This document shows, piece by piece, positions 4,932 through 42,729 of a DNA stretch of 54,874 bases (the first letter of the stretch is position 1; every line of letters begins with the position of its first letter). The stretch is taken from assembly GCA_043800725.1 (NCBI GenBank), contig JAZDMR010000023.1, positions 1 to 54,874 on the forward strand, read 5' to 3'. The notes below the pieces were generated by a model. That model worked only from the letters and a program-made list of their open reading frames with translations. It was not told the origin of the DNA and ran no database searches. Both the position numbers and the translations under genes were made by a program. The stretch is from a bacterium (GTDB taxonomy: Bacteria; Patescibacteriota; Patescibacteriia; HK-STAS-PATE-3).

Positions 4932-6911
4932 ATGCTAAATTTCAAACATCAAGCATTACCCCGACTAGCGGATCCTATCCGTTTTCTTCTTGTTGGGGCA
5001 GTAGTTTTCGGGCTGATAATTCAACCAATAAGTTCCATTGCTTTTTCCAAGGCTGAGCAAGGCCCAGAAGGAGATGGCACCGGTGTATCAGCAGTAATTG
5101 GGTATAGCATCCAGGGATATGTCTGGGATGACAATGCTGTTGATAAATCATTCGATCCTGCTGATATTGGGCTCGAGGGCTGGACAGTTGAAATCTCAAA
5201 AGCCCCAGCCCCAGGAGAATCTATTCTGCCAATTCTAGGCCCTGAAACGACTGATGCTACCGGCTTTTATAAATTTGAAAACTTACGTCCTGGCACATAC
5301 ACAGTCTGTCAGGTCGATAAAGTTGAGTTAGGCTGGAAACAAACTTTTCCTGATTCCACATCTGATAACCCCTTCGGCTGTCATGAAATAACAGTCGAAC
5401 TAGCCACCAATAGAGATGAGGGACCAGCTAATTATAACTTTGGCAACTTTCTAATGGGTTTTGGTTCAATTTCAGGTGTTGTTTGGAACGATGCTGACGG
5501 AGACGCCACTCGGATAATTCCTGACGAAGTTGGTTTGGAAAACTGGACAGTGAATCTATTGACCAGCTGCTCGGAAGATTTTAATCGTTACGACCTTAAT
5601 CTTGATAGCGTTATTGATCCGACAGATTTTTCTTTATTCACCGGCCTATTCAACACCTTTTCAGTAAGTGCTGACTTGAATGGTGATGGATTATTGACTC
5701 AGCCAGATGAAGACTGCTTTGGCATCCTTTACAGTGGCGGTTCAATTGATAGTCCTCTCACAGTGATTGGAACAACCACATCTGACGCTGATGGAAACTA
5801 CTCATTCGCTGATCTAGGCTATGGCAACTACTGGGTAAATGAGGATGTTCAGGTTGATTGGACGCAGACCAAGCCAGGCGGCGATGGAGTTTACGGACCT
5901 TTAGGCGTGGCCCCGACAACCAGCTGGACCGAACAAGACTTTGGCAACTGGATTCCGGTTGCTGAAGAGCCTGTGATTGAAGAGGAAGAACCAGTTGAAC
6001 CGGCAGGAGAAGAGGTTGTGATTGAGGAAGAAGAAGTCGTTCTGCCTGTTATAGAACTGGACAAAATCGCTTCGGCAAATTCAGTCATTGCTGATGCTCA
6101 GGTAACTTATACCTTCAATTACACTGTTTCTGACGCAACTGCCAGCTCAGTGGTTTTAAGCGACCCGCTGCCCGACTACATGACTTTCGTTTCTGCCAGC
6201 GATGAAGGCGCTTACGACCCATTAACCAATGTGGTTACTTGGAATTTGGGCGACAAAGAGCCGGGTAATTATCTGACAACCATGACCGTGCAAGTCGATG
6301 GGGTAATTACTAATGGCACTAAAATTGAAAATGTCGCAACAATCTCAGCCAGCGAAATTGAACCCGTAACTGACAATGCTATAGTAACGGTAAATTCTCG
6401 ACCAGTTTTAACTGTAAAAAAAATGATCGACCAAGACACGGCTTCCCGAGGCGACACCCTTCTCTACACTGTTCTGATTACCAATGAAGGTACCGATACT
6501 GCCAAGAACCTAACAGCCAAAGACATTTTGCCACAGGGTTTCACTACCAAGGATGATCAGGTGAGCGAATTCTCCGTTAAATTTAACGACCTGGAAGTGG
6601 ACAAATCAGTAGCCACCTCTTATGAGGTCGTGGTGGGCGATCAAGTGGCTAAGGGTAGCTATGACAACACTGTTACAGCTTCGGCGGATAATACTGAATC
6701 GGTTAGCGCCACTGCCACAGTTGAAATTGAAGTCTTGGGAGAAGTATTAGGCGTTGAAACTGTTGCTGAGCCGGAAGTACTAGGAGCAGAGGCTACTCTT
6801 CCAGAAACAGGATTGGGTTTAATTGATCTGTTGATTATGATTACTGGCCTTCTCACTATCAGTGGCGGAGTTTATCTGACTCGCCGACAAACCGGTCTCG
6901 CTATAAAGTAA
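4932..6911 (+). CDS. large cell-surface protein with a C-terminal LPXTG-type sorting signal
   Basis: Signal/TM at the N-terminus, SdrD-B/DUF11-like repeats, a dockerin/EF-hand-like DLNLDSVID..DLNGDG segment and an acidic E-rich linker. The C-terminus is LPETG followed by a hydrophobic helix and RRQ. Confidence 0.8.
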   Translation: MLNFKHQALPRLADPIRFLLVGAVVFGLIIQPISSIAFSKAEQGPEGDGTGVSAVIGYSIQGYVWDDNAVDKSFDPADIGLEGWTVEISKAPAPGESILPILGPETTDATGFYKFENLRPGTYTVCQVDKVELGWKQTFPDSTSDNPFGCHEITVELATNRDEGPANYNFGNFLMGFGSISGVVWNDADGDATRIIPDEVGLENWTVNLLTSCSEDFNRYDLNLDSVIDPTDFSLFTGLFNTFSVSADLNGDGLLTQPDEDCFGILYSGGSIDSPLTVIGTTTSDADGNYSFADLGYGNYWVNEDVQVDWTQTKPGGDGVYGPLGVAPTTSWTEQDFGNWIPVAEEPVIEEEEPVEPAGEEVVIEEEEVVLPVIELDKIASANSVIADAQVTYTFNYTVSDATASSVVLSDPLPDYMTFVSASDEGAYDPLTNVVTWNLGDKEPGNYLTTMTVQVDGVITNGTKIENVATISASEIEPVTDNAIVTVNSRPVLTVKKMIDQDTASRGDTLLYTVLITNEGTDTAKNLTAKDILPQGFTTKDDQVSEFSVKFNDLEVDKSVATSYEVVVGDQVAKGSYDNTVTASADNTESVSATATVEIEVLGEVLGVETVAEPEVLGAEATLPETGLGLIDLLIMITGLLTISGGVYLTRRQTGLAIK

Positions 6912-9863: not shown

Positions 9864-10688
9864 CTAAAAAATCAAAAAGACTACCAGCACTGTTAATCCC
9901 AAAACTATTCGGTAATAAGCAAATCCTCGCAATGAGTGATTCTGGAAAAGTTTCAATAAAAACCTAAGCGCTGAAATTCCTACAAATGCAGAAAACACAA
10001 AGCCGATAATAATGACATTCCATTCTGAATTGGGTAAACCTTCCTTAGTCAAATCAAATATCTTTTTTATCGATGCCCCAAATACAATCGGCAAAGAAAG
10101 CAAAAAAGAAAAGCGGGCTGCTTGATAGTGTGAAAGTTTTAATGCCCTGCCTGCGGCAATCGTGCTCCCAGAACGTGATACTCCGGGAATAAAAGCCAAG
10201 ACTTGAGCCATGCCGATTATCAAGGCATGGCTGATTGTTAAGCCAGACAGATCTCTGCTTGTTTCTGCAGTAATTTCTATTAGTAAAAAGACCAAGCCGC
10301 CCAAGATAAGCATTATGCCCACCCAAACCATTGACCTGAATATTTTCTCAATATCAGACTCAAAAAAGAAGCCTATCACTGCTGCCGGAATAGTACTAAC
10401 AATAATTAGCCAAGTAATCCTCGAATTATAAATGGTCTTTTCAGTACGATCGTTTCTCAAATAGCTAACCGTCGATCCGATCAGATTAATAATATCATTT
10501 CTAAAAAAAACTATCAGAGCGATTAAGGTTCCGGCATGAAGCGCCACATCAAAACCAAGCTGGTCAGAAGCGGCAAAATTTGGCCAAATCTCATGAAAAA
10601 ACACTAAATGCCCTGAGCTTGAGACGGGTAAAATTTCAGTAATTCCCTGTACCGCCCCAAACAGAGCAGCTAATAAATAATCAATCAT
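9864..10688 (-). CDS. uppP: undecaprenyl-diphosphate phosphatase
   Basis: N-terminal GITEILPVSSSGHL motif; polytopic membrane protein of 274 aa. Confidence 0.85.
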   Translation of the reverse strand: MIDYLLAALFGAVQGITEILPVSSSGHLVFFHEIWPNFAASDQLGFDVALHAGTLIALIVFFRNDIINLIGSTVSYLRNDRTEKTIYNSRITWLIIVSTIPAAVIGFFFESDIEKIFRSMVWVGIMLILGGLVFLLIEITAETSRDLSGLTISHALIIGMAQVLAFIPGVSRSGSTIAAGRALKLSHYQAARFSFLLSLPIVFGASIKKIFDLTKEGLPNSEWNVIIIGFVFSAFVGISALRFLLKLFQNHSLRGFAYYRIVLGLTVLVVFLIF

Positions 10689-33539: not shown

Positions 33540-34331
33540 CTACACCGGCCTTAGTGTCCCCGCCCATACCTGCCAGGCCAAAAGAGACTTGGCCACCAGT
33601 GAGAGGACGATGTAGGTTTTTTCTCCGTAAAGATAATCCCTCCACTTCCCCACCTTCTTGTATTGCATGACCATGTTAACCGCGAAGCTATTGAAGAACA
33701 GGAAGATTGAGAAATAAATCCAATAGACAAATGCTGGTGGGCCTTGATCCCCGCTACCTGAACCAAATAAATAAATACCGACAGCTACCCAGGGTACAGC
33801 TCCGGCAATTACTCCAAACCAATAAGAGGTCCAGTTGGTCTTATCCGTTGTTTGATTATGCAGTTCCATCATCCAGCCAAACAATATCATCATGGCATTC
33901 AAGAAAAATAAAAGCATTATACTGACTATGTCATAGATGCCTACCAGCATAGCGATAACTACTATCATCAACGACGAACTAAAAGCATACTCAATCCAGC
34001 GGGCATAGTTCGCGCCTTTGGTTAAGTTCTTCACATACCAGCGATAACCGCCTCCGACTGATACTGCTAAGTGAGCAATAGCCGATATAAACAAAAAGCC
34101 GGCGACTAAGGGACCAATCCGCCATTCGCTTATCGTATCCAAGACTGGTGTTAGTTGTTGAGTTGTTGCATTAAATTTAAGAAACGCTGTGGTAACTGGT
34201 ACTGCGAAATCGCTTGAAAGTATAAGCATCAGCACGCCTTGGATTGCATGCAAGAAAAACATAATCAAATTGAACTTTCGTAGCCCTTTAGTTCGTTCTT
34301 CGATTTGTGGTTGTGTGTTTTGATCGTTCAT
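33540..34331 (-). CDS. heliorhodopsin
   Basis: 7-TM protein with a long N-terminal cytoplasmic lead. Motifs remembered from heliorhodopsins: ARWIEYAFSSSLMIV, FGWMMEL, FVYWIYFSIFLFFNSF. The retinal-lysine context is YIVLSLVAKSLLAWQVWAGTL. Confidence 0.85.
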   Translation of the reverse strand: MNDQNTQPQIEERTKGLRKFNLIMFFLHAIQGVLMLILSSDFAVPVTTAFLKFNATTQQLTPVLDTISEWRIGPLVAGFLFISAIAHLAVSVGGGYRWYVKNLTKGANYARWIEYAFSSSLMIVVIAMLVGIYDIVSIMLLFFLNAMMILFGWMMELHNQTTDKTNWTSYWFGVIAGAVPWVAVGIYLFGSGSGDQGPPAFVYWIYFSIFLFFNSFAVNMVMQYKKVGKWRDYLYGEKTYIVLSLVAKSLLAWQVWAGTLRPV

Positions 34332-35395: not shown

Positions 35396-35489
35396 AATGG
35401 TTTGCGCGGGATCAGTTCTAGATCACATTGTAGGCTCTGGCGTAGAGGTTCCAAAGCGATTTTCCATTCATGTAATGATTATACCATAA

Positions 35490-35681
35490 AACGGCCGACT
35501 TTTTCATTCAATGGGATCAAAGGCTGAAAAACTTCCGGATGACATAGAAGTGAATACTCGCAAGTACGCCAAATACCTACTCAAACAAGGCAGTATGACT
35601 GAGAAGCGTGAACTATTAGGGAATCTGCGGAGTCGGTTGGTCTATAAGGATAAAATCATATCACTGGTGCAAGAAGCGTAG
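35490..35681 (+). pseudogene. possible C-terminal remnant of a large serine recombinase
   Basis: An isolated 63-codon frame ends ..[42 protein letters not shown]-stop. It resembles the C-terminal tails of recombinase-family proteins as I remember them. No catalytic domain is present. Confidence 0.3.
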
Positions 35682-35686
35682 AAACT

Positions 35687-36175
35687 CTACGTAGACTTAA
35701 TAATGACCTCAAATTCATCTTTTGAGAGATTTTCATTCAGGCCAAGTTGTTTTAATTGATGATGTCGCCATCCTTCAACTGAGTTATCATGATCCCACGC
35801 GGCTCTTTGTTTATCTTCATCAAAAAAGAAAAGTTTCATTGTCGTCAGCATTGATTTTTTCGATGCCTTGGGAATGAAAATTTTAAAGTGTGCTATTAAT
35901 AAAAGAACTCCGAAAAATATACCCGTATATAAAAAAATTATTCTATGATCTGGCGGGAAAACAAGACCTACCAGAACGGTTAGGTTACCCATGACGTAAA
36001 CTATAATACCGACAAGAGAGGAGATGCGCTGACGCCCAAAAGATTTAGCCAAGACAAGATTGTAGCCATATTTACTAATTGATAATTGTGCATCTCCAAG
36101 TGGAGTTTTACTAGCAGCCCCAATAGCCAAAATAATGGATCCACTTAATGCGATTATTAGACCAAAAATATCCAT
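35687..36175 (-). CDS. membrane hypothetical protein
   Basis: 162 aa with 4 hydrophobic helices; AT-rich like the host. Confidence 0.5.
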   Translation of the reverse strand: MDIFGLIIALSGSIILAIGAASKTPLGDAQLSISKYGYNLVLAKSFGRQRISSLVGIIVYVMGNLTVLVGLVFPPDHRIIFLYTGIFFGVLLLIAHFKIFIPKASKKSMLTTMKLFFFDEDKQRAAWDHDNSVEGWRHHQLKQLGLNENLSKDEFEVIIKST

Positions 36176-36219
36176 ACTCTGATGTTTTCTTTTAATGCGT
36201 TTAATCCGTCCACCAACGA

Positions 36220-36293
36220 TGGCAGGGGCGGAAGGTGTCGCACCCTCGTTGCCGGTTTTGGAGACCGGTGTTCTACTGTTGAACTACGCCCCC
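36220..36293 (-). tRNA. tRNA-Trp (anticodon CCA), CCA encoded, with non-canonical D- and T-loops
   Basis: GGGGGCG-TA-GTTC-AACAGTA-GAAC-A-CCGGT-CTCCAAA-ACCGG-CAAC-GAGGG-TGCGACA-CCTTC-CGCCCCT-G-CCA. The acceptor pairs fully (G1.U72). The D-loop lacks GG, and the T-loop is TGCGACA rather than TTCRANN. Confidence 0.8.
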
Positions 36294-36536
36294 ATCATCG
36301 ATGTTGGACAATCAAATATTTTTAGCACGTATCGCGCTGTTGTTCAATGGTGGGCTTCACACATGAGTCGCGTTCGATACTCCGTACCCCTGGCAGGGGA
36401 AAAGCGGCTCGAACTACATGGGTCGCCCCTCGTGTATTATTTCGGAAATATGGAGAAAATTCAATAGCTTCGGAAACTGATTTGACTTGATACTATTATT
36501 CATATATAATCTCATATAGTCATTATATATGATACT

Positions 36537-37589
36537 ATGGACCGTAGAGAACAGCGAATCGCAAGTATTCCCCAACACATCTGGTCGCTGGTCAATCAAA
36601 TTGATCAGTTGAAAGGCCAATGGATCGGCGGGGCTCAATTAAACCCCCAGGCACTCGGGCGGCTGAAGCGTTCGGTTTTGGTTACGTCGAGCGGTGCCTC
36701 CACCCGTATTGAAGGAGTAAAATTGTCAGATGAGGACGTGGAAAAGCTCATGCGCGGACTTTCGATTACCAAATTCGCCGACCGGGACAAGCAGGAAGTC
36801 TGGGGATACTACGAACTCCTTGAAAATGTCTTCAATTCCTGGAAGCACATTCCGTTTACGGAGAGCACAATCAAGCACTTCCACAAGGAGCTCTTGAAGC
36901 ACGTGAACAAGGATGCGCTGCATCGAGGTGAATATAAGACTTCGGAGAACAGCGTGGAGATATTCGACGAGAACGGAAAATCGCTCGGGGTCATCTTCAA
37001 AACGATTCCGGCCTATCTCACTCCGAAGCGAATGCAGGAATCGGTAGAATGGACGCGATGGGCCTTGAAGGAAGAGACACAGCATCCACTATTCCTCATG
37101 GCGAACTTCATTGTCGAGTTTCTCGCTATTCACCCGTTCCAGGACGGGAACGGCCGGCTCGCGCGCATTCTCACGAATCTGCTCATGTTGAAAAGCGGCT
37201 ACGCCTATGTGCCGTACGTTTCCCATGAAAAACTTGTGGAAGACAACAAGGCCGATTACTATGTCGCGCTCCGGAGAAGCCAGATAACATTCGGTACTAC
37301 GAAGGAAACAATCGCGCCCTGGCTTGAGTTCTTTCTGGCCATTGCACTTACCCAAGCCCGCCAGGCGATTAATCTGCTCTCCCGTGAGAATATCGAGAAG
37401 CTGCTGTCCCCGAAACAACTCGCGGTTTGGCAGTATCTTGAGCAGGTTACGGAAGCGACGCCAGGACAAATTGCGAAAGCGGCTCACGTCGCTCGTCCGA
37501 CCGTGTCGCAGGCACTAGAGGTATTGTTACGCCTGAAGAAAATCGAGCGGATCGGGCAGGGCAGGACGACGCGGTATCGGAGGCAATAG
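36537..37589 (+). CDS. Fic-family protein (probable AMPylase) with an N-terminal inhibitory motif and a C-terminal wHTH
   Basis: Fic core HPFQDGNGRLARIL, upstream SxxxEG-type motif (ASTRIEGV) and a C-terminal HTH-like QIAKAAHVARPTVSQALEVLLRLKKIERIGQGRTTRY. Confidence 0.9.
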   Translation: MDRREQRIASIPQHIWSLVNQIDQLKGQWIGGAQLNPQALGRLKRSVLVTSSGASTRIEGVKLSDEDVEKLMRGLSITKFADRDKQEVWGYYELLENVFNSWKHIPFTESTIKHFHKELLKHVNKDALHRGEYKTSENSVEIFDENGKSLGVIFKTIPAYLTPKRMQESVEWTRWALKEETQHPLFLMANFIVEFLAIHPFQDGNGRLARILTNLLMLKSGYAYVPYVSHEKLVEDNKADYYVALRRSQITFGTTKETIAPWLEFFLAIALTQARQAINLLSRENIEKLLSPKQLAVWQYLEQVTEATPGQIAKAAHVARPTVSQALEVLLRLKKIERIGQGRTTRYRRQ

Positions 37590-37600
37590 AGATAATTTGT

Positions 37601-37855
37601 ATGGCAAAGAAGGTAAAGGCTCTTCATGCGCTCAATTGGTACTACGGCAACATCTGCTCGCGGAAGTGCCCGGAAGAGAAGCAGAAAAGCCACTACGACC
37701 GCATGCACGAGATCATCAAAGGGCACGGAGAGTTTCTTATTACCCATACAATGTTCATCAAGGTCATGTATAACAAGTACCACGTTTGCGGATTAAGCGA
37801 CGAGGAACTTCGACGGCCGACTCGGGATTTCTGGAGACTGAAGTGTCTTCCATGA
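37601..37855 (+). CDS. 84-aa Cys/His-rich hypothetical protein
   Basis: Starts 12 nt after the Fic stop, and its TGA overlaps the ATG of the next gene (ATGA at 37852-37855). It has 4 Cys and 7 His. Confidence 0.55.
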   Translation: MAKKVKALHALNWYYGNICSRKCPEEKQKSHYDRMHEIIKGHGEFLITHTMFIKVMYNKYHVCGLSDEELRRPTRDFWRLKCLP

Positions 37856-40008
37856 TTACTATCACAGACGAACAGCTCGCGCTCTATCAGTCGCTGTTTC
37901 GCGGACGTACCGATGTGTATGCGAAACGGTGGGAAAAGAACGGACGGTCCGGATATTACCCTGCCTATCAGTTCGATTGGGCCGAGTTTCTCATCCACCA
38001 GCGTCGCGGCGGAAATATGGCAACGTTCGAAGGCAAGACCCCGCTTCCGTTGACGCCTGACGTGGTCAAAAAGCACCTGATCGGGCAGTACACCGTAGGA
38101 GTGTATCCGTTACTCAAAAACAATACCTCATACTTCATTGTTGCCGACTTCGATGGTCCCCAGGCGTTCGATGACGCAAAGAAGCTGGTCAAAGCCTGCA
38201 GCGAACTTCGACTTCCCGCGTATATTGAGCGATCCCGTTCGGGCAACGGTGCGCATGTGTGGTTATTCTTCGAAAATGCGTTCCCGGCTGCCCGAAGCCG
38301 CATGATTATGCTTGAGTGTGTGCGCAAAGCACTGGGAATGTCCGCTTTCGAAAAGGAGGTATCATTCGACCGGCTGTTCCCGAATCAAGACATGCAAAGC
38401 GGAAAGGGGTTCGGTAACCTGATCGCGCTTCCTCTCCAGGGTATATCTCTCGGACAAGGGAATACTATTTTCCTTGACCCGAAAACACAGGCTCCATATC
38501 CCGACCAGTGGGTATTTCTCCCAACAATTCACCGAATTCCTTCGAGGACGCTGGACCAAGTATTTGATACGATCGTGCGAGGTGACATGAGCGCTACGAC
38601 GGACGCCGCATCGACCGGGAAAATCACTCTTCGCCTTGATTCAGGGATTCGCACAGCAAAAGTCCGGCTCGATAAGGAAACGGTCAGCTTTCTTCGGGAG
38701 GAATTGAATTTCCCCAATCTCGACTACTGGCTGAAACGCAAGCTCGGCAAGAGCACATATCAGACGGATAAGTTTTTCCGATTGATCGACGAGGAAGGAG
38801 AAGATGTTGTCCTGCCCCGGGGTTTTCTTTCCAAACTCACTGACCATTTCCGGATGCGGGGAATACCGTTTGTCATCCATGACAAGAGATCAGTACTGCC
38901 CGAAGTCACCTTCTCCTCCGCGATTGAGCTACGACCGTCTCAAGTCGGCCTCGTCGAGCAAGCAACGGAGTCCGACCAGGGCGTTCTTGTTGCACCGCCC
39001 GGGAGCGGGAAGACGGTTATGGGCCTTCAGCTTATCGCCCGCCGGAAACAACCGGCGCTGATTCTCACGCACCGGAAGCAGATCATGGACCAGTGGATCG
39101 GGCGCATCCAAGAATTTCTCGGGATACCGAAAGCGCACATCGGCCGGATTGACGGCGTGAAGAAAACAATCGGTGACAAAATCACTGTCGCGATGTTGCA
39201 GAGCATGAACCGTCGGGAGGACGCGAGCAAAATTCGTAACCGTTTCGGAACAATCGTCATTGACGAGTGCCAGCACCTTCCCGCAAAAACATTTCGCGAA
39301 GTTGTTTCTCATTTGAATGCCCGGTACTGCTATGGATTAACAGCAACACCGAAACGCAAGCACAACGACGAAAAACTCATTTATCTCTTCATCGGAGATA
39401 TTATTGCGGAACTGCCGGAGCAACTATCCGTTTCCAAGACGACCGAAGGGAATACGTCCGTTGCCGTACGTTCGGTGATTATCCACGAAACCGGACTTGA
39501 GATTCCATTCTCATTCACTGCCGACGACTACCAACTGCTGGCGCGTATTGTCTCGTTCGATCAGACTCGTAACCGTCTTGTCCTGAACGACATCCGTCAT
39601 TCCGTCGGGTTCGGATTGAAAACACTGGTGTTAAGCGAGAGAAAAGAACATCTGGAAGTGTTGCGCCTCTATCAAAAAGGGATCGCCGAATCCATCCTCA
39701 TCACTGGCGACGACTCCCTTGCATCGCGGAAAAGCAAATTTGCCCAGATTGCTTCCGGCCACTATCAGATTCTCTTCGCAACCGGGCAACTCCTCGGAGA
39801 AGGACTGGATCTTCCCGATATTCAAGCGGTTATCCTCGCATTTCCGCTCGCGTTTGAAGGAAAGCTCGCGCAATACATCGGACGCATCCGGAGCGACAAT
39901 AAGACCGTCTATGACTATCATGATGCGAAAACACCGTTTCTTGATCGTCAATTCAAAAAACGAAAAAAGTTCTATGAGAAGAACGGCTTTATCCTAACTG
40001 GTTCTTAA
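37852..40008 (+). CDS. AEP-type primase-polymerase domain fused to an SF2 (DExH) helicase
   Basis: N-terminal half: FRGRTDVYAKRWE, YFIVADFDG (DxD) and SRSGNGAHVWLFF (SGxGxH). C-terminal half: APPGSGKT, VIDECQH, GLTATPKR and QYIGRIRS. The start is set at the ATG coupled to the upstream ORF; the track ORF starts at 37786. Confidence 0.8.
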   Translation: MITITDEQLALYQSLFRGRTDVYAKRWEKNGRSGYYPAYQFDWAEFLIHQRRGGNMATFEGKTPLPLTPDVVKKHLIGQYTVGVYPLLKNNTSYFIVADFDGPQAFDDAKKLVKACSELRLPAYIERSRSGNGAHVWLFFENAFPAARSRMIMLECVRKALGMSAFEKEVSFDRLFPNQDMQSGKGFGNLIALPLQGISLGQGNTIFLDPKTQAPYPDQWVFLPTIHRIPSRTLDQVFDTIVRGDMSATTDAASTGKITLRLDSGIRTAKVRLDKETVSFLREELNFPNLDYWLKRKLGKSTYQTDKFFRLIDEEGEDVVLPRGFLSKLTDHFRMRGIPFVIHDKRSVLPEVTFSSAIELRPSQVGLVEQATESDQGVLVAPPGSGKTVMGLQLIARRKQPALILTHRKQIMDQWIGRIQEFLGIPKAHIGRIDGVKKTIGDKITVAMLQSMNRREDASKIRNRFGTIVIDECQHLPAKTFREVVSHLNARYCYGLTATPKRKHNDEKLIYLFIGDIIAELPEQLSVSKTTEGNTSVAVRSVIIHETGLEIPFSFTADDYQLLARIVSFDQTRNRLVLNDIRHSVGFGLKTLVLSERKEHLEVLRLYQKGIAESILITGDDSLASRKSKFAQIASGHYQILFATGQLLGEGLDLPDIQAVILAFPLAFEGKLAQYIGRIRSDNKTVYDYHDAKTPFLDRQFKKRKKFYEKNGFILTGS

Positions 40009-40054
40009 AAACCATCGTCGGTAGACACTCGGGTCGCACGATAACATTTCATCC

Positions 40055-40128
40055 CCGCAGAGGCAGAGGGAATCGAACCCCCGTTTCAGGTTTTGGAGAC
40101 CCGTGTTCTGCCACTGAACTACACCCCC
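40055..40128 (-). pseudogene. tRNA-Trp(CCA)-like gene with a non-pairing 3' acceptor strand (pseudo-tRNA or recombination junction)
   Basis: GGGGGTG-TA-GTTC-AGTGGCA-GAAC-A-CGGGT-CTCCAAA-ACCTG-AAAC-GGGGG-TTCGATT-CCCTC is followed by TGCCTCTGCGG instead of CACCCCC-N-CCA. Confidence 0.6.
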
Positions 40129-40133
40129 GTGTT

Positions 40134-40685
40134 TTATAGACCCAGTTGATCGCTAATGCCTTGCAGCGCGTCTATACAGTTTTGAATATGCTCTTCTAGG
40201 GGCAGATTTAACTCTTTTAGCCCCTGTTCTATCTCTTCACGGTTGACATTAGCAGCAAATGACGGCTGTTTCAACTTTTTAGTAACATTCTCTACAGTCA
40301 CCTCACTAAGCTTTTTGCTTGGCCGAATCAATGCCACCGCGATTATAAACCCGGATAACTCATCAACTGCAAAGACCACTTTCTTCATTTGGCTATCACG
40401 GGGCTCACCAGTATGGGGTGCGTGAGCCAGAACGCCTTTGATAATCTCTTCGGATACTCCTCTGTCTTTTAAGATAGCTGAACCTTTTTGGGGATGCTCG
40501 TCTTCGTTGGGATGGATCTCATAATCAAAATCGTGAAGCAAGCCAACAATACCCCACAGATCTTCATCTTCGTGATACTTCTTCGCATAAAATCGCATGC
40601 AAGCTTCTACGGCTAATCCGTGTTTGCGAAGATTCGAGTTCTTGGTGAACTCCTGCAGGATAGCTAAAGCTTCATCGCGCTTCAT
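40134..40685 (-). CDS. HD-domain metal-dependent phosphohydrolase
   Basis: The H..GLLHDFDY HD signature; 183 aa. Confidence 0.75.
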   Translation of the reverse strand: MKRDEALAILQEFTKNSNLRKHGLAVEACMRFYAKKYHEDEDLWGIVGLLHDFDYEIHPNEDEHPQKGSAILKDRGVSEEIIKGVLAHAPHTGEPRDSQMKKVVFAVDELSGFIIAVALIRPSKKLSEVTVENVTKKLKQPSFAANVNREEIEQGLKELNLPLEEHIQNCIDALQGISDQLGL

Positions 40686-40841
40686 CTATTTGGTTTCTTT
40701 ATGCTGGGTATGCTTTTTGCACCAGCGGCAGTATTTTTTCAGCTCTAAACGATTCTTAAGCGTTTTCTTGTTCTTGTGAGAATGGTAATTCAAACGCTTG
40801 CAGTTTGAGCACTCTAGTTTTATGAGATTATCTTGAGACAT
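40686..40841 (-). CDS. rpmG: 50S ribosomal protein L33
   Basis: Not in the ORF track (51 aa). Translation is [51 protein letters not shown], with the CxxC..CxxC L33 pattern. Confidence 0.85.
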
Positions 40842-41323: not shown

Positions 41324-41398
41324 TGGAGCCGGAGAGAGGATTCGAACCCCCGACCTTCACTTTACAAAAGTGTTGCTCTACCCCTGAGCTACTCCGGC
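41324..41398 (-). tRNA. tRNA-Thr (anticodon UGU), CCA encoded
   Basis: GCCGGAG-TA-GCTC-AGGGGTA-GAGC-A-ACACT-TTTGTAA-AGTGA-AGGTC-GGGGG-TTCGAAT-CCTCT-CTCCGGC-T-CCA. Confidence 0.9.
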
Positions 41399-41404
41399 GT
41401 ATTG

Positions 41405-41755
41405 TTAATTAATTTCTAACCTCGGAATAATATCAATGGGCGGTTCTTCATAAGGGTGGGCTGCTTTTAAGGCTTTAACTACTTCCTCTACTTTATCTTT
41501 GTGGCATAGTGTTTCGATCACTTCTTCCTCAACTTCTTCCAGCTTGCCTACCTCGCCAATACTGGGACTCGCACCTTGCTGAGGAATATATCGACCGATC
41601 GAAGTATGTGAACCGCTGGCATGAGAATAATTTCCTTGCACGCCGGCACCAGCATCACCCAAAGCTTTCCGCATCTTGTCTGCCTCCGCCTTAGGCACAG
41701 CTGTTTGAATTTTCACGTAATCTGATTCTCGTAGTAACATATTAATCTCCCCCAT
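41405..41755 (-). CDS. stand-alone Nif3/YqfO PII-like insert-domain protein (COG3323-like)
   Basis: GAGVQGNYSHASGSHTSIGRYIPQQGASPSIGEVGKLEEVEEEVIETLC..AHPYEEPPIDI resembles the YqfO insert domain. The true start may be the internal MLLRES, because the first codons overlap the repeat element. Confidence 0.6.
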   Translation of the reverse strand: MGEINMLLRESDYVKIQTAVPKAEADKMRKALGDAGAGVQGNYSHASGSHTSIGRYIPQQGASPSIGEVGKLEEVEEEVIETLCHKDKVEEVVKALKAAHPYEEPPIDIIPRLEIN

Positions 41756-41867
41756 CGAACGCTTGGGCCCGTAGGGTTAAGCGTGAGATGGAAAGGGGCA
41801 TGCGCCGTAAGGGCGAAGCAGAAGCGACTTGTTCGCTTCTACGCAGTCCGCACGGCGCAATGACCCG
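41751..41867 (+). ncRNA. tRNA-end element family, full copy abutting the tRNA-Tyr-like 3' fragment (strand tentative)
   Basis: CCATCGAACGCTTGGGCCCGTAGGGTTAAGCGTGAGATGG plus the second domain. Its last base is adjacent to the TGG at 41868. Confidence 0.6.
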
Positions 41868-42026
41868 TGGTGGGCCGAGTAGGATTCTCCCGCACAATAT
41901 TGTTTTTGAAGCGGTTTGCGGGATCCCGCTATGACGCGGGAGAACCTACGAAGGCGTAAGCCAGCAGATTTATGCCGCCTTGGGCGGCACCCCGCCAAAG
42001 GCGGTGGCAGTCTGCCCTCAACTCCC
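41868..42026 (-). pseudogene. 3' two-thirds of a second tRNA-Tyr gene (B), with a 35-nt anticodon-loop insertion and a 54-nt T-loop insertion
   Basis: Outside the insertions at 41973-42007 and 41888-41941, the sequence from the anticodon loop to the T-arm is identical to tRNA-Tyr at 42029-42114. The acceptor 3' strand is TCGGCCC-A-CCA. Confidence 0.7.
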
Positions 42027-42374
42027 TCTGGTGGGTGGAGTAGGATTCGAACCTACGAAGGCGTAAGCCAGCAGATTTACAGTCTGCCCCTGTTGACCGC
42101 TTAGGTATCCACCCACCAGAGAGATTTGAATTATTTTTTTAATAAGCTTCTTAATGGCTTCTCCACCTTTGTATGATTTGATTTGTCGTTCGCGCTGATA
42201 TGCTTTATTGCGCGATTGGAAGCTCTCGTAATATATCAGTTTCCATGGAATTCCAGATTTTGTGGAACGCACCTCACCTTTATTATGATCCTTTATTCTT
42301 TCCTTGAGATCTTCCGTCGAACCAACATAGTATCTGCCAATTCTTTCACTTTTGAGAATATAGGTTTTGTACAT
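42018..42374 (-). CDS. small GIY-YIG nuclease-domain protein (ORF reads through tRNA-Tyr)
   Basis: MYKTYILKSERIGRYYVGSTEDLKERIKDHN..YQRERQIKSYKGGEAIKKLI is a GIY-YIG/URI-domain pattern. There is no stop until 42018, so the last ~35 codons overlap the tRNA gene. The track start is at 42404. Confidence 0.7.
   Translation of the reverse strand: MYKTYILKSERIGRYYVGSTEDLKERIKDHNKGEVRSTKSGIPWKLIYYESFQSRNKAYQRERQIKSYKGGEAIKKLIKKIIQISLVGGYLSGQQGQTVNLLAYAFVGSNPTPPTRGS
42029..42114 (-). tRNA. tRNA-Tyr (anticodon GUA), long variable arm, CCA encoded
   Basis: GGGTGGA-TA-CCTA-AGCGGTCAA-CAGG-G-GCAGA-CTGTAAA-TCTGC-TGGCTTACGCCTTC-GTAGG-TTCGAAT-CCTAC-TCCACCC-A-CCA. Confidence 0.9.
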
Positions 42375-42417
42375 ACAACTACATTCAAATTTTATCGTCT
42401 TCATCTAGAATAATAGA

Positions 42418-42505
42418 AGTCTGCCCCGTTTTCCCGCCACTGAATTAATTAATATTGGTTGGCGGGACCCCGCAGAATGCGGTGGGACCGCTTCGGTATC
42501 GACCC
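42418..42505 (-). pseudogene. 5' third of tRNA-Tyr gene B (acceptor to U33), with a 54-nt D-loop insertion
   Basis: GGGTCGA-TA-CCGA-AGCGGTC-[54 nt at 42432-42485]-AAAC-GGGGCAGACT. GGGTCGA pairs with the TCGGCCC strand at 41872-41878, a compensated 5:68 pair relative to tRNA-Tyr at 42029-42114. Confidence 0.65.
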
Positions 42506-42535
42506 AAGTTAAGTTATTATGTGATGATCAAGGCG

Positions 42536-42653
42536 ACCGTCGAACGCTTGGGCCCGATAGGGTTAAGCGTGAGACGGAGAGGCACACTCTTGCGAAGGGC
42601 GCAGTGAAGACAACTTGTTTGTCTTCACGTAGCCCGTAGCAAGTGATGGGCCG
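42536..42653 (+). ncRNA. tRNA-end element family, full copy abutting tRNA-Thr(GGU) (strand tentative)
   Basis: CCGTCGAACGCTTGGGCCCGATAGGGTTAAGCGTGAGACGG plus the second domain. Its last base is adjacent to the TGG at 42654. Confidence 0.6.
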
Positions 42654-42729
42654 TGGAGCCCACGAGCAGACTTGAACTGCTGACCTACTCCTTACCATGG
42701 AGTTGCTCTACCAGCTGAGCTACGTGGGC
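42654..42729 (-). tRNA. tRNA-Thr (anticodon GGU), CCA encoded
   Basis: GCCCACG-TA-GCTC-AGCTGGTA-GAGC-A-ACTCC-ATGGTAA-GGAGT-AGGTC-AGCAG-TTCAAGT-CTGCT-CGTGGGC-T-CCA. Confidence 0.95.

Follow-up and report, generated by a model that had tools for sequence, protein, structure and literature searches.

Contig JAZDMR010000023.1 of the patescibacterial assembly GCA_043800725.1 was analysed over 54,874 nucleotides (hereafter the window), and this report concerns a GC-rich island at 36294-40056 of the window. The island is a tight plus-strand operon of three genes located between two tRNA-Trp(CCA) genes. The operon encodes a Fic protein, a small protein of 84 amino acids, and a polymerase-helicase of the family of IEE, an enhancer of the excision of insertion sequences (IS). 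The part of the island covering 36389-40056 (~3.7 kb), hereafter the Fic cassette, is a cassette with conserved ends, and the same kind of cassette is found adjacent to tRNA genes in other genomes. The loci compared with the window (W in the alignments) are designated by L-numbers. The features of the island and of its borders are as follows:

36220..36293, minus strand: tRNA-Trp(CCA) copy 1 (Trp1, the inner copy), intact, with encoded CCA, of the "replacement" type; Rfam 58.4 bits.
36353..36396, plus strand: X-box′, most simply the right end of a preceding cassette, abutting the core TGGCAGGGG; X-box model R1, E 7e-4 over the whole window.
36389..36414, plus strand: core and mimic of a tRNA 3′-half (acceptor and T-arm), TGGCAGGGGAAAAGCGGCTCGAAC, forming the left end of the Fic cassette; alignment A7.
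36415..36436, plus strand: hairpin with the loop GGTCGCC followed by a T tract, from a terminator scan; a putative terminator-like insulator 5′ of the promoter.
36482..36510, plus strand: predicted sigma-70 promoter, TTGACT-17-TATAAT, with 11 of 12 matches, the best in 35400-40800.
36500..36532, plus strand: putative palindromic operator, TCATATATAAT N11 ATTATATATGA, covering the -10 box and the start site; read from the sequence.
36537..37589, plus strand: SoFic-like Fic protein (predicted AMPylase) of 350 aa, with an N-terminal inhibitory helix, the Fic core and a C-terminal winged helix-turn-helix (wHTH).
37601..37855, plus strand: helical orphan protein of 84 aa, starting 11 nt after the Fic stop codon; candidate modulator or antitoxin.
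37852..40008, plus strand: IEE-family protein of 718 aa, a polymerase of archaeo-eukaryotic primase (AEP) type at the N-terminus, fused to an XPB/Rad25-like superfamily 2 (SF2) helicase.
40010..40059, plus strand: right-end X-box, adjoining Trp2 at its 3′ end; model R1, 26.5 bits, E 3e-7; alignment A6.
40057..40128, minus strand: tRNA-Trp(CCA) copy 2 (Trp2, the outer copy), 6 nt past the HD gene and thus at the host position; Rfam 60.4 bits.

The composition of the island is clearly distinct from that of its surroundings. Its GC content is 50.9% versus 41.4% for the remaining window, 9.5 points above the host, and same-size windows taken elsewhere have a mean of 41.3% (sd 1.9) and a maximum of 45.6. 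In tetranucleotide composition, the island lies at a distance of 0.438 from the rest, with other windows at 0.167 ± 0.021, and GC at third codon positions (GC3) is 0.58-0.66 for the three island genes versus 0.29-0.55 for flanking genes. An earlier note, prepared by eye from the sequence, had described a deviating island of about 50% GC with GC-ending codons and three open reading frames (ORFs) in a compact operon, and all of this is borne out by the computed values and by the ORFs themselves. Its estimate of the flanks in the high 30s was too low: they have 41-44% GC, and only the region 35600-36200 comes down to ~36%.

The ends of the Fic cassette are the most characteristic part of its non-coding sequence. 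On the right, the 45-55 nt leading up to the tRNA consist of the X-box, AGGCAC.CGGGTCGC.CGATAC.AAATTGTC, and then TGGCGG, which is the complement of the tRNA end ..CCGCCA. The left end is arranged in the order of a TGGCGG-type core (TGGCAGGGG, matching the tRNA-Trp end), a T-arm-like mimic ..AAAGCGACTCGAAC, the hairpin, the promoter, and the inverted repeat. The mimic of the tRNA 3′-half, whose pattern match in the window is at 36391-36414, is kept in W, L002, L003, L007, L011, L046, and L094 (A7), and the hairpin block GTGGGTCGCC with its T-rich tail is conserved in the same alignment. The blocks of the left end, including the columns of the -35 and -10 boxes, are conserved in nine loci. An inverted repeat equivalent to the operator, AATCTCATA..TATGAGATT, is found in L003, L007, and L011, and the wHTH of Fic may bind the palindromic operator of the window to repress its own promoter.

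These ends recur at other tRNA genes. In many loci, a minus-strand tRNA gene lies ~50-130 nt past the polymerase-helicase stop codon with its 3′ end facing the gene, and the tRNAs abutted by the X-box are Ser-TGA, Ser-GGA, Ser-GCT, and Ser-CGA, in addition to Trp in the window. The X-box model gives 21 matches in 1.2 Mb of compared DNA, all on the operon strand and all in Fic-clade loci, and none in ~65 other loci; within the window, only two matches have E <0.5. The X-box and the core may be followed by a true tRNA, by a mimic, or, as at the right end of L011 and in L092 and L003, by unrelated DNA. Thus the proposal of the earlier note that an integrated mobile element is present is strengthened by the finding of the same module, with its conserved non-coding ends, at other tRNAs in unrelated contexts.

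There are more complicated arrangements at the left end. The window, L094, L011, L046, and L003 have another X-box ahead of the left core, so that the module is flanked by direct repeats 3.5-3.8 kb apart; repeats with this spacing also flank the module of L002. Taken most simply, cassettes of one family would recombine at the very 3′ tip of tRNA genes that encode CCA and accumulate in tandem, and the X-box at 36353-36396 in the window would be the right end of an earlier cassette. Neither a third X-box nor a second mimic was found in the window, which leaves the left limit of this neighboring remnant undefined. As for L007/L095 and L002, ordinary host DNA or a remnant of tRNA-Ser lies on the left. 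The core common to both junctions amounts to only ~TGGC(A/G)G, and in the window the right junction is devoid of the “TG” of CCA; because of this short core and the missing “TG,” the crossover point is not fixed.

The host side of the insertion site is visible in three related loci. L099-L101, with an HD protein 72-74% identical to that of the window, share with it the order PrmC-RF1-L31 / S2-Tsf-TPR-tRNA-Thr-tRNA-Thr-L33-HD-tRNA-Trp. Past the tRNA-Trp gene each of them carries different genes, and the synteny ends exactly at tRNA-Trp. Fic, the polymerase-helicase, and anything from the left side of the window are all missing in L099-L101; the earlier note had reasoned that the same genes at the same locus in relatives, with host-like composition, would indicate vertical core genes, and they are absent from three out of three syntenic relatives. 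Furthermore, pieces of tRNA-Trp are found in these relatives. In L100 (7553-7861), 5′- and 3′-fragments of a native-type tRNA-Trp with unrelated flanks surround a complete Trp1-like tRNA, and in L099 (7745-7864) a tRNA-Trp 3′-half remnant with an insert in the T loop lies ~110 nt after the intact tRNA-Trp. The best X-box matches in L100 (E 0.028) and L099 (E 0.95) are weak and are located immediately 3′ of the tRNA-Trp fragments. The combination of tRNA-Trp fragments and X-box-like sequence indicates that tRNA-Trp is an integration hot spot in this lineage.

The two tRNA-Trp genes at the borders of the island, on which ARAGORN and Rfam agree, are both full-length and 79% identical over 72 nt. 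Trp1 has an unusual T loop, UGCGACA, and ends in GCCA; its acceptor stem consists of six Watson-Crick pairs and one G-U pair, and it folds as a cloverleaf. Trp2 has an acceptor stem of four G-U and three Watson-Crick pairs with the tail GCGGG, its minimum-energy fold is not a cloverleaf, and, unlike the five other tRNAs of the window, it has no encoded CCA. Trp2 is degraded at the end touching the island, though not truncated. The earlier note had taken the outer tRNA-Trp as broken, with loss of acceptor complementarity exactly at the island edge. The degraded acceptor end and the missing CCA agree with it, but the gene is full-length and the loss of complementarity was an overstatement, since every acceptor position is still able to pair.

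Trp1 is identical at 72 of 74 positions to the tRNA-Trp of L100 that sits between the fragments of the native-type gene, and L100 is the only one among all compared loci with a tRNA of the Trp1 type; no exact match to Trp1 was found in viral contigs. From the fragments and the replacement copy in the relatives, it follows that inserted DNA brings in the Trp1 type, which behaves as a replacement tRNA. The suggestion in the earlier note that the element disrupted tRNA-Trp and carries a replacement is therefore half right: the outer copy is degraded and the inner one is intact, but the replacement lies outside the Fic cassette. Trp1 is 12 nt from the start of the right-end module of the earlier cassette, which makes it a part of the neighboring remnant, not of the GC-rich Fic cassette. 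This pair illustrates how damage from integration into a single-copy tRNA gene can be offset by a tRNA on a mobile cassette. To the left of Trp1, two more features are found:

35511..35681, plus strand: remnant of a large serine recombinase (last ~56 codons), located by tblastn, with in-frame stops upstream.
35687..36175, minus strand: ORF162, a predicted membrane protein of 162 aa; GC 36%; no match in Pfam or PHROG.

The recombinase remnant is 61-67% identical to the C-termini of proteins with Resolvase, Recombinase, and Zn_ribbon_recom domains in L003/L004, L046 (three copies), and L010, by which the serine-recombinase tail suspected in the earlier note at 35490-35681 is confirmed and placed more precisely. 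ORF162, of which no homologue is found in L099-L101, is probably cargo of the neighboring cassette remnant, although its membership is uncertain; Trp1 goes with the same remnant, and perhaps so does the recombinase tail. Large serine recombinase genes are also present around related cassettes: immediately 5′ of the left X-box in L094 and L046, and 6 kb downstream within a methylase-bearing unit in L003/L004, with a fragment following the X-box in L092. L094 and L003 have the same two units in opposite order, which fits independent cassettes using one site. Probably, the Fic cassette is mobilized in trans by neighboring large serine recombinases. In L046, three serine-recombinase C-terminal tails (171-299, 6401-6517, and 9896-10054) lie no more than 10 kb from a single Fic cassette, a likely sign of heavy traffic of cassettes.

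The first gene of the operon encodes a Fic protein in which the sequence features expected of an active enzyme are preserved. Its catalytic motif, HPFQDGNGRLAR at aa 199 (H199PFQDGNGRLAR), conforms to the consensus HxFx(D/E)GNGRxxR and is invariant in 13 partner Fic proteins. The inhibitory motif S55TRIEG60 is located N-terminal to the core, and S55 and E59 are invariant among the partner Fic proteins. Judging from these motifs, the protein is likely to be catalytically competent and auto-inhibited. It matches Pfam Fic at 1e-16, with winged-helix matches at 289-349 below threshold, and the PADLOC SoFic model at 3.6e-43 (positions 52-349 of 361). The earlier note had likewise read the STRIEG motif and a C-terminal wHTH. 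Of the solved relatives, PDB 8uqu is the best (1.8e-32), and SoFic 3eqx follows at 4e-8.

SoFic of Escherichia coli is a single-gene anti-phage/toxin system; it is toxic, and its antitoxin AS1 (47 aa) is encoded just downstream (PMC12249575). The window Fic resembles it in having the Fic motif, the N-terminal inhibitory motif, a predicted C-terminal winged helix, and a small ORF directly downstream. On the other hand, its nearest solved structure is 8uqu rather than 3eqx, the downstream ORF is 84 aa, bears Cys and His residues, is missing in several relatives, and is comparable to AS1 in its position, and the operon runs on into the IEE-like gene.

The 84-aa protein itself is a genuine but rare orphan. 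It has 19 homologous clusters in 5.8 billion proteins, all hypothetical and all from Patescibacteria, and their alignment is well conserved, with H9, C19, C23, H49, and C63 invariant. Searches of Pfam, PADLOC, NCBIfam, and PHROG gave no family match. A zinc finger or another known fold was considered and rejected: the AlphaFold2 model is helical (pLDDT 81), and its best PDB match has E ~1 and a TM score of 0.41. By analogy with AS1 of E. coli SoFic, the protein is possibly an antitoxin. Its ORF is present in L002, L007/L095, L011, L012, and L096, and absent in L001/L006, L003-5, L092, and L094.

The true start of the third gene is ATG 37852, which overlaps the TGA stop of the small ORF as ATGA, and the resulting 718 aa is the length of its homologues. 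The protein matches PF22548 AEP-TOTE at 3e-76 (256 bits versus a cut-off of 27) as well as ResIII (4.5e-25), DEAD, and Helicase_C. Its AEP motifs, D99-F-D101, S130GNGAH135, and FD173RLFPNQD, align with D142/D144, H178, and D216 of IEE, respectively, and its helicase motifs are GSGKT at 384, DECQH at 471, TATP at 497, and QYIGRIR. These catalytic motifs are invariant in 16 homologues, and the enzyme is predicted to be catalytically competent. The helicase part is similar to XPB/Rad25 structures in PDB (8e-18), and the AEP part to the CRISPR-associated primase-polymerase CAPP (PDB 7nqd, 2e-8) and to PADLOC PrimPol (2.5e-64). In BLASTP against an E. coli IEE-type protein, residues 5-713 align with 47-775 of the subject at 33% identity (E 8e-113, ~99% coverage), and that subject has Y128, D142, D144, S171, Q175, G176, H178, D216, K451, and R735 as numbered for IEE (PMC9943667). 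These ten residues and the end-to-end alignment identify the “primase-helicase” of the window as an IEE-family protein. The earlier note had proposed an AEP primase-polymerase/SF2 helicase fusion with ATGA coupling; its domains and the overlap hold, and the assignment is now refined to the IEE family.

IEE is the IS-excision enhancer of E. coli O157:H7 (Kusumoto 2011; Calvo 2023, PMC9943667). It is a Mn-dependent error-prone AEP polymerase, which together with the helicase domain joins 3′ overhangs by microhomology; the overhangs joined share at least 4 bp of homology, and the enzyme promotes transposase-dependent excision of IS629 (PMC9943667). The window protein agrees with IEE in full-length architecture and in falling under PF22548; the arginine finger, Walker A, DExH, and, in the AEP part, the metal ligands and the histidine of motif B are all kept. 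Like IEE, it is spread horizontally and located on integrative islands. It differs in size (718 versus 786 aa, without the N-terminal extension of ~45 residues) and in setting: it is encoded in Patescibacteria in an operon with Fic, whereas the E. coli IEE follows an “inovirus-type Gp2” gene (two loci). CAPP and the Ppol-Hel of Thermus ICETh2 (PMC7693054) are similar in combining AEP and helicase, in occurring on a mobile element, and in a link to defense against foreign DNA, but the window has no CRISPR locus and its helicase is fused rather than separate. As for side observations in E. coli, IEE comes after AlpA, YfjI, and the “inovirus-type Gp2” gene within tyrosine-integrase islands in L089 and L098, and the IEE island of STEC346 adjoins a Zorya remnant and IS3 fragments.

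The family is widespread. Homologues of the polymerase-helicase form more than 7,800 clusters, mostly labeled just “DEAD/DEAH helicase,” with identities of 45-72% across Patescibacteria, Bacteroidota, Ignavibacteriota, Actinomycetota, and others. The E. coli homologue, one of those on plasmids, is found in 876 of 5,426 complete E. coli genomes and is named by PGAP as [quoted passage not shown] Plasmids with a full-length homologue number 97, and a search of 50,697 phage records gave none. An origin from phages was rejected, as phages gave only helicase-domain matches and the PHROG matches are to generic helicase/primase families.

The association of Fic with the polymerase-helicase is conserved. 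Fic is directly upstream in all 12 distinct loci examined whose polymerase-helicase is at least 64% identical to that of the window, and it has the same place in more distant loci labeled as Saccharibacteria, Gracilibacteria, and Adlerbacteria, with gaps of 5-14 nt or overlaps between the two genes across loci. Pairwise identities of the two proteins co-vary in 14 loci (r 0.76, Mantel p ~2e-4), with noise added by the Fic of L046, which is apparently disrupted or frame-shifted (58 aa from the expected start in the ORF call). The adjacency and the co-varying identities indicate that Fic and the IEE-like protein are inherited as a unit. The triad of the earlier note is not conserved as such: the conserved unit is the pair, and the small ORF is optional. 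In L006 (6656-8528)/L001, the closest relatives of the window operon, a PIF1-type helicase gene on the opposite strand is found between the IEE-like gene and the X-box, and several tRNA-Ser fragments are found upstream of Fic.

In most of 80 sampled genomes, the polymerase-helicase occurs without Fic and with other partners. For example, RhuM is encoded directly upstream in seven Bacteroidales loci, and a Schlafen AlbA_2/HATPase_c_4 protein directly downstream in seven loci; further partners are AbiEii, M78 peptidase, restriction/methylase genes, a Ser/Thr kinase with TPR repeats, and sometimes housekeeping genes. Across phyla, the family seems to have varying partners of a toxin-like or regulator-like kind. 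RhuM was also examined as a relative of the Fic fold, and no relation was detected (hhalign probability 1.2%, with shallow profiles). A side observation concerns L022, L049, L056, L062, L065, L069, and L074 (~10.1-11.5 kb), six of them labeled as Bacteroidota and L022 as Paceibacterota, in which an ORF of ~440 aa starts 13-40 nt after the IEE-like gene; family counts (Schlafen AlbA_2 in seven members, HATPase_c_4 in six) suggest that it is an AlbA_2 + HATPase_c_4 protein.

The name of the AEP domain recalls the TOTE conflict systems, in which, according to 2022 work as cited in a preprint, TPR-OB (cold-shock) and TBP-domain proteins adjoin the effector (bioRxiv 10.1101/2025.09.15.676423). Genes for TPR-cold-shock or TBP proteins were found neither in the window nor, in 26 other loci, among the 124 ORFs within ~3.5 kb of the polymerase-helicase. 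The loci thus do not qualify as canonical TOTE systems, and membership was rejected. What is shared is the Pfam domain name “AEP-TOTE” only, which PGAP also gives to homologues.

The best overall explanation, in which we have moderate confidence, is that the Fic cassette is a non-autonomous conflict-type cassette at the 3′ end of the host tRNA-Trp, a hot spot with tandem stacking. The stretch 36389-40056 would have been inserted at this 3′ end, where cassettes of the same family would stack in tandem. Its layout would be that of a tRNA 3′-half mimic, an insulating hairpin, its own promoter and operator, the three-gene operon, and an X-box abutting the tRNA. It would most likely have been moved by the large serine recombinase of a related autonomous cassette, of which the sequence at 35511-35681 may be a decayed remnant, and the intact Trp1 of the neighboring remnant would compensate for the damaged host Trp2. 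Fic may act as an auto-inhibited AMPylating toxin that probably represses its own promoter through the wHTH and whose release would stop growth. The 84-aa protein would be a lineage-specific modulator, possibly an antitoxin like AS1, and the IEE-like enzyme may use end joining or priming, in the manner of E. coli IEE, to handle the ends or single-stranded DNA of elements that transpose or invade. The toxin-like partners across the family, the carriage on plasmids but not on phages, and the defense-rich surroundings suggest that the operon probably serves as conflict or defense cargo.

Several observations weigh against this explanation. As for the movement, no recombinase is found by Pfam among the three genes of the cassette, and a precise empty site was not found: the relatives with 72-74% identity show only the break of synteny at tRNA-Trp, a metagenome scan with the HD protein gave only relatives of 51-58% identity without synteny, and the polymerase-helicase of the window itself is not on record. 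With no recombinase inside and no excised or truly empty site found, integration by a serine recombinase is no more than probable. Moreover, the X-box is directly repeated at both ends over 44-70 nt, a pattern that goes more often with the att sites of tyrosine integrases or with tandem accretion; such repeats are too long for a single serine-recombinase event, and therefore tandem accretion must be assumed. As for the function, Fic scores 53.8 bits on the NCBIfam SoFic equivalog with a cut-off of 550, meaning that it has the SoFic architecture and is not an orthologue, and the 84-aa ORF, being absent from several close relatives, cannot be essential. Transposases of the IS3 family are the partners of E. 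coli IEE, and none is seen in the window; no transposase is present among the Pfam matches listed for window ORFs of at least 100 aa, the window covering just 55 kb of the genome. PADLOC recognizes the single proteins of the operon but no system that covers it, and no IEE-family protein has been tied by experiment to Fic or to defense against phages. The earlier note had refrained from naming a system; this still applies to the operon as a whole, which is neither a PADLOC nor a TOTE system, but not to its genes, which can be named as SoFic-like and IEE/AEP-TOTE.

Other explanations differ in what they make of the polymerase-helicase. It may be the initiator in a replication or maintenance module of an integrated plasmid-like element, with Fic, with or without the small protein, as an addiction toxin or regulator. 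Plasmids and other mobile elements do classically have AEP-helicase fusions as their replicases (background cited in PMC11724360), and the cassette is mobile and tRNA-associated with homologues on plasmids and integrase-bearing E. coli islands. We nevertheless regard this as unlikely: the helicase is of the XPB-like SF2 type and not SF3 or DnaB, the phage records hold no full-length homologue (0 of 50,697), and among three plasmids inspected, both of those with a MOB-suite replicon type have their own replicon. Many family members are located among housekeeping or defense genes without hallmarks of mobile elements, and the characterized relative, IEE, is an end-joining polymerase and not a replicase (PMC9943667). 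In Thermus, too, a mobile-element primase-polymerase encoded with a helicase, possibly a homologue, is dispensable for replication of the element (PMC7693054). Alternatively, the IEE-like enzyme may be a DNA-repair or IS-excision factor working through microhomology end joining after breaks, to the benefit of host or cassette, and Fic an independent single-gene toxin or defense gene of the SoFic type that travels along with it. The end-to-end homology to IEE with its catalytic residues kept, the known biochemistry of IEE (PMC9943667), the action of SoFic as a single-gene system (PMC12249575), and the absence of Fic beside the polymerase-helicase in most of the 80 sampled genomes all speak for such independence. 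Yet the translational coupling and co-divergence persist down to ~41-49% identity in bins labeled as Uhrbacteria, Saccharibacteria, Gracilibacteria, and Adlerbacteria, no transposase is seen in the window, and other family members are also tightly linked to toxin-like partners, by which independence of the two genes becomes improbable.

The absence of a recombinase from the cassette, the short junction core (6-10 nt), and the joining of 3′ overhangs by IEE with at least 4 bp of homology (PMC9943667) could also be combined into a self-moving cassette, in which the IEE-like enzyme inserts the DNA at tRNA 3′ ends via microhomology at the core TGGCGG. This is very unlikely, as X-box units without the polymerase-helicase are found (the far unit of L011, the methylase-recombinase units of L003/L094, the Trp1 unit of the window, L100, and L099), serine recombinases are repeatedly adjacent, and the long conserved end modules resemble protein-binding att sites. 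Finally, it is hardly credible that no mobile element is involved and that vertically inherited host genes lie between duplicated tRNA-Trp genes. Both tRNAs are called full-length and the operon is intact, as such inheritance would have it, but the island is a compositional outlier, its genes are absent from three syntenic relatives, and the same cassette with the same ends is found at other tRNAs in other lineages, which already contradicts it.

Going beyond the non-autonomous conflict-type cassette favored above, Fic and the IEE-like protein may form a two-enzyme immune or anti-mobile-element module, in which the IEE-type enzyme would sense or process the ends of DNA that invades or transposes and gate the Fic toxin, delivered by a new class of promoter-bearing, recombinase-less cassettes. 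We regard this as possible but doubtful. Such cassettes would stack at tRNA 3′ ends of Patescibacteria as integron cassettes do at attI, and the module would give the enigmatic IEE family a general biological role. Since 2011, IEE has stood as an odd E. coli factor removing IS elements, with its widespread homologues unexplained. From the conserved and co-evolving Fic-IEE operon comes the concrete and testable idea that IEE-family enzymes have a toxin-like partner with which they act in genetic conflicts, and the RhuM, AbiEii, and AlbA_2-type neighbors of other family members point to the same role.

SoFic-like Fic proteins, the IEE/AEP-TOTE families, and tRNA-targeted islands have already been described. 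In the searchable literature, we found no description of the conserved Fic-IEE operon, of the orphan 84-aa gene, or of a small cassette that bears a promoter, an X-box, and a tRNA-half mimic but no recombinase. tRNA-targeting islands, among them islands of the tycheposon type and integrase-less elements mobilizable in cis (bioRxiv 10.1101/2020.12.28.424599), resemble the cassettes of the window type in insertion at the tRNA 3′ end, a tRNA-like far repeat, stacking at hot spots, variable cargo, and atypical composition. They differ in that the window-type cassettes are only 3.5-3.8 kb, have their own promoter each, and reside in Patescibacteria, and in that the X-box lies outside the tRNA and the associated recombinases are large serine ones, not tyrosine ones. 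The conserved ends, namely the X-box, the tRNA-half mimic, and the built-in promoter, define a type of small mobile cassette in Patescibacteria, and they may serve as att sites of large serine recombinases, enzymes that are useful as tools.

Some other observations were made around the island. A heliorhodopsin gene (33540-34331, minus strand; PF18761, 4.8e-99) is located ~2 kb left of the recombinase remnant, in a region without synteny to relatives of the host. Another tRNA-associated insertion covers 41324-42729 with GC ~0.54 between tRNA-Thr(tgt) and tRNA-Thr(ggt); it carries a tRNA-Tyr gene (42029-42114), an overlapping GIY-YIG ORF (42018-42404; PF01541, 1.5e-15), and a 116-aa ORF without family. 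In the relatives L099 and L101, the two tRNA-Thr genes are close together, and no tRNA-Tyr is called in L099-L101. A GIY-YIG ORF is also found in L095 (8368-8622), following the tRNA-Ser that bounds the Fic cassette, and echoes the GIY-YIG ORF beside the tRNA-Tyr of the window.

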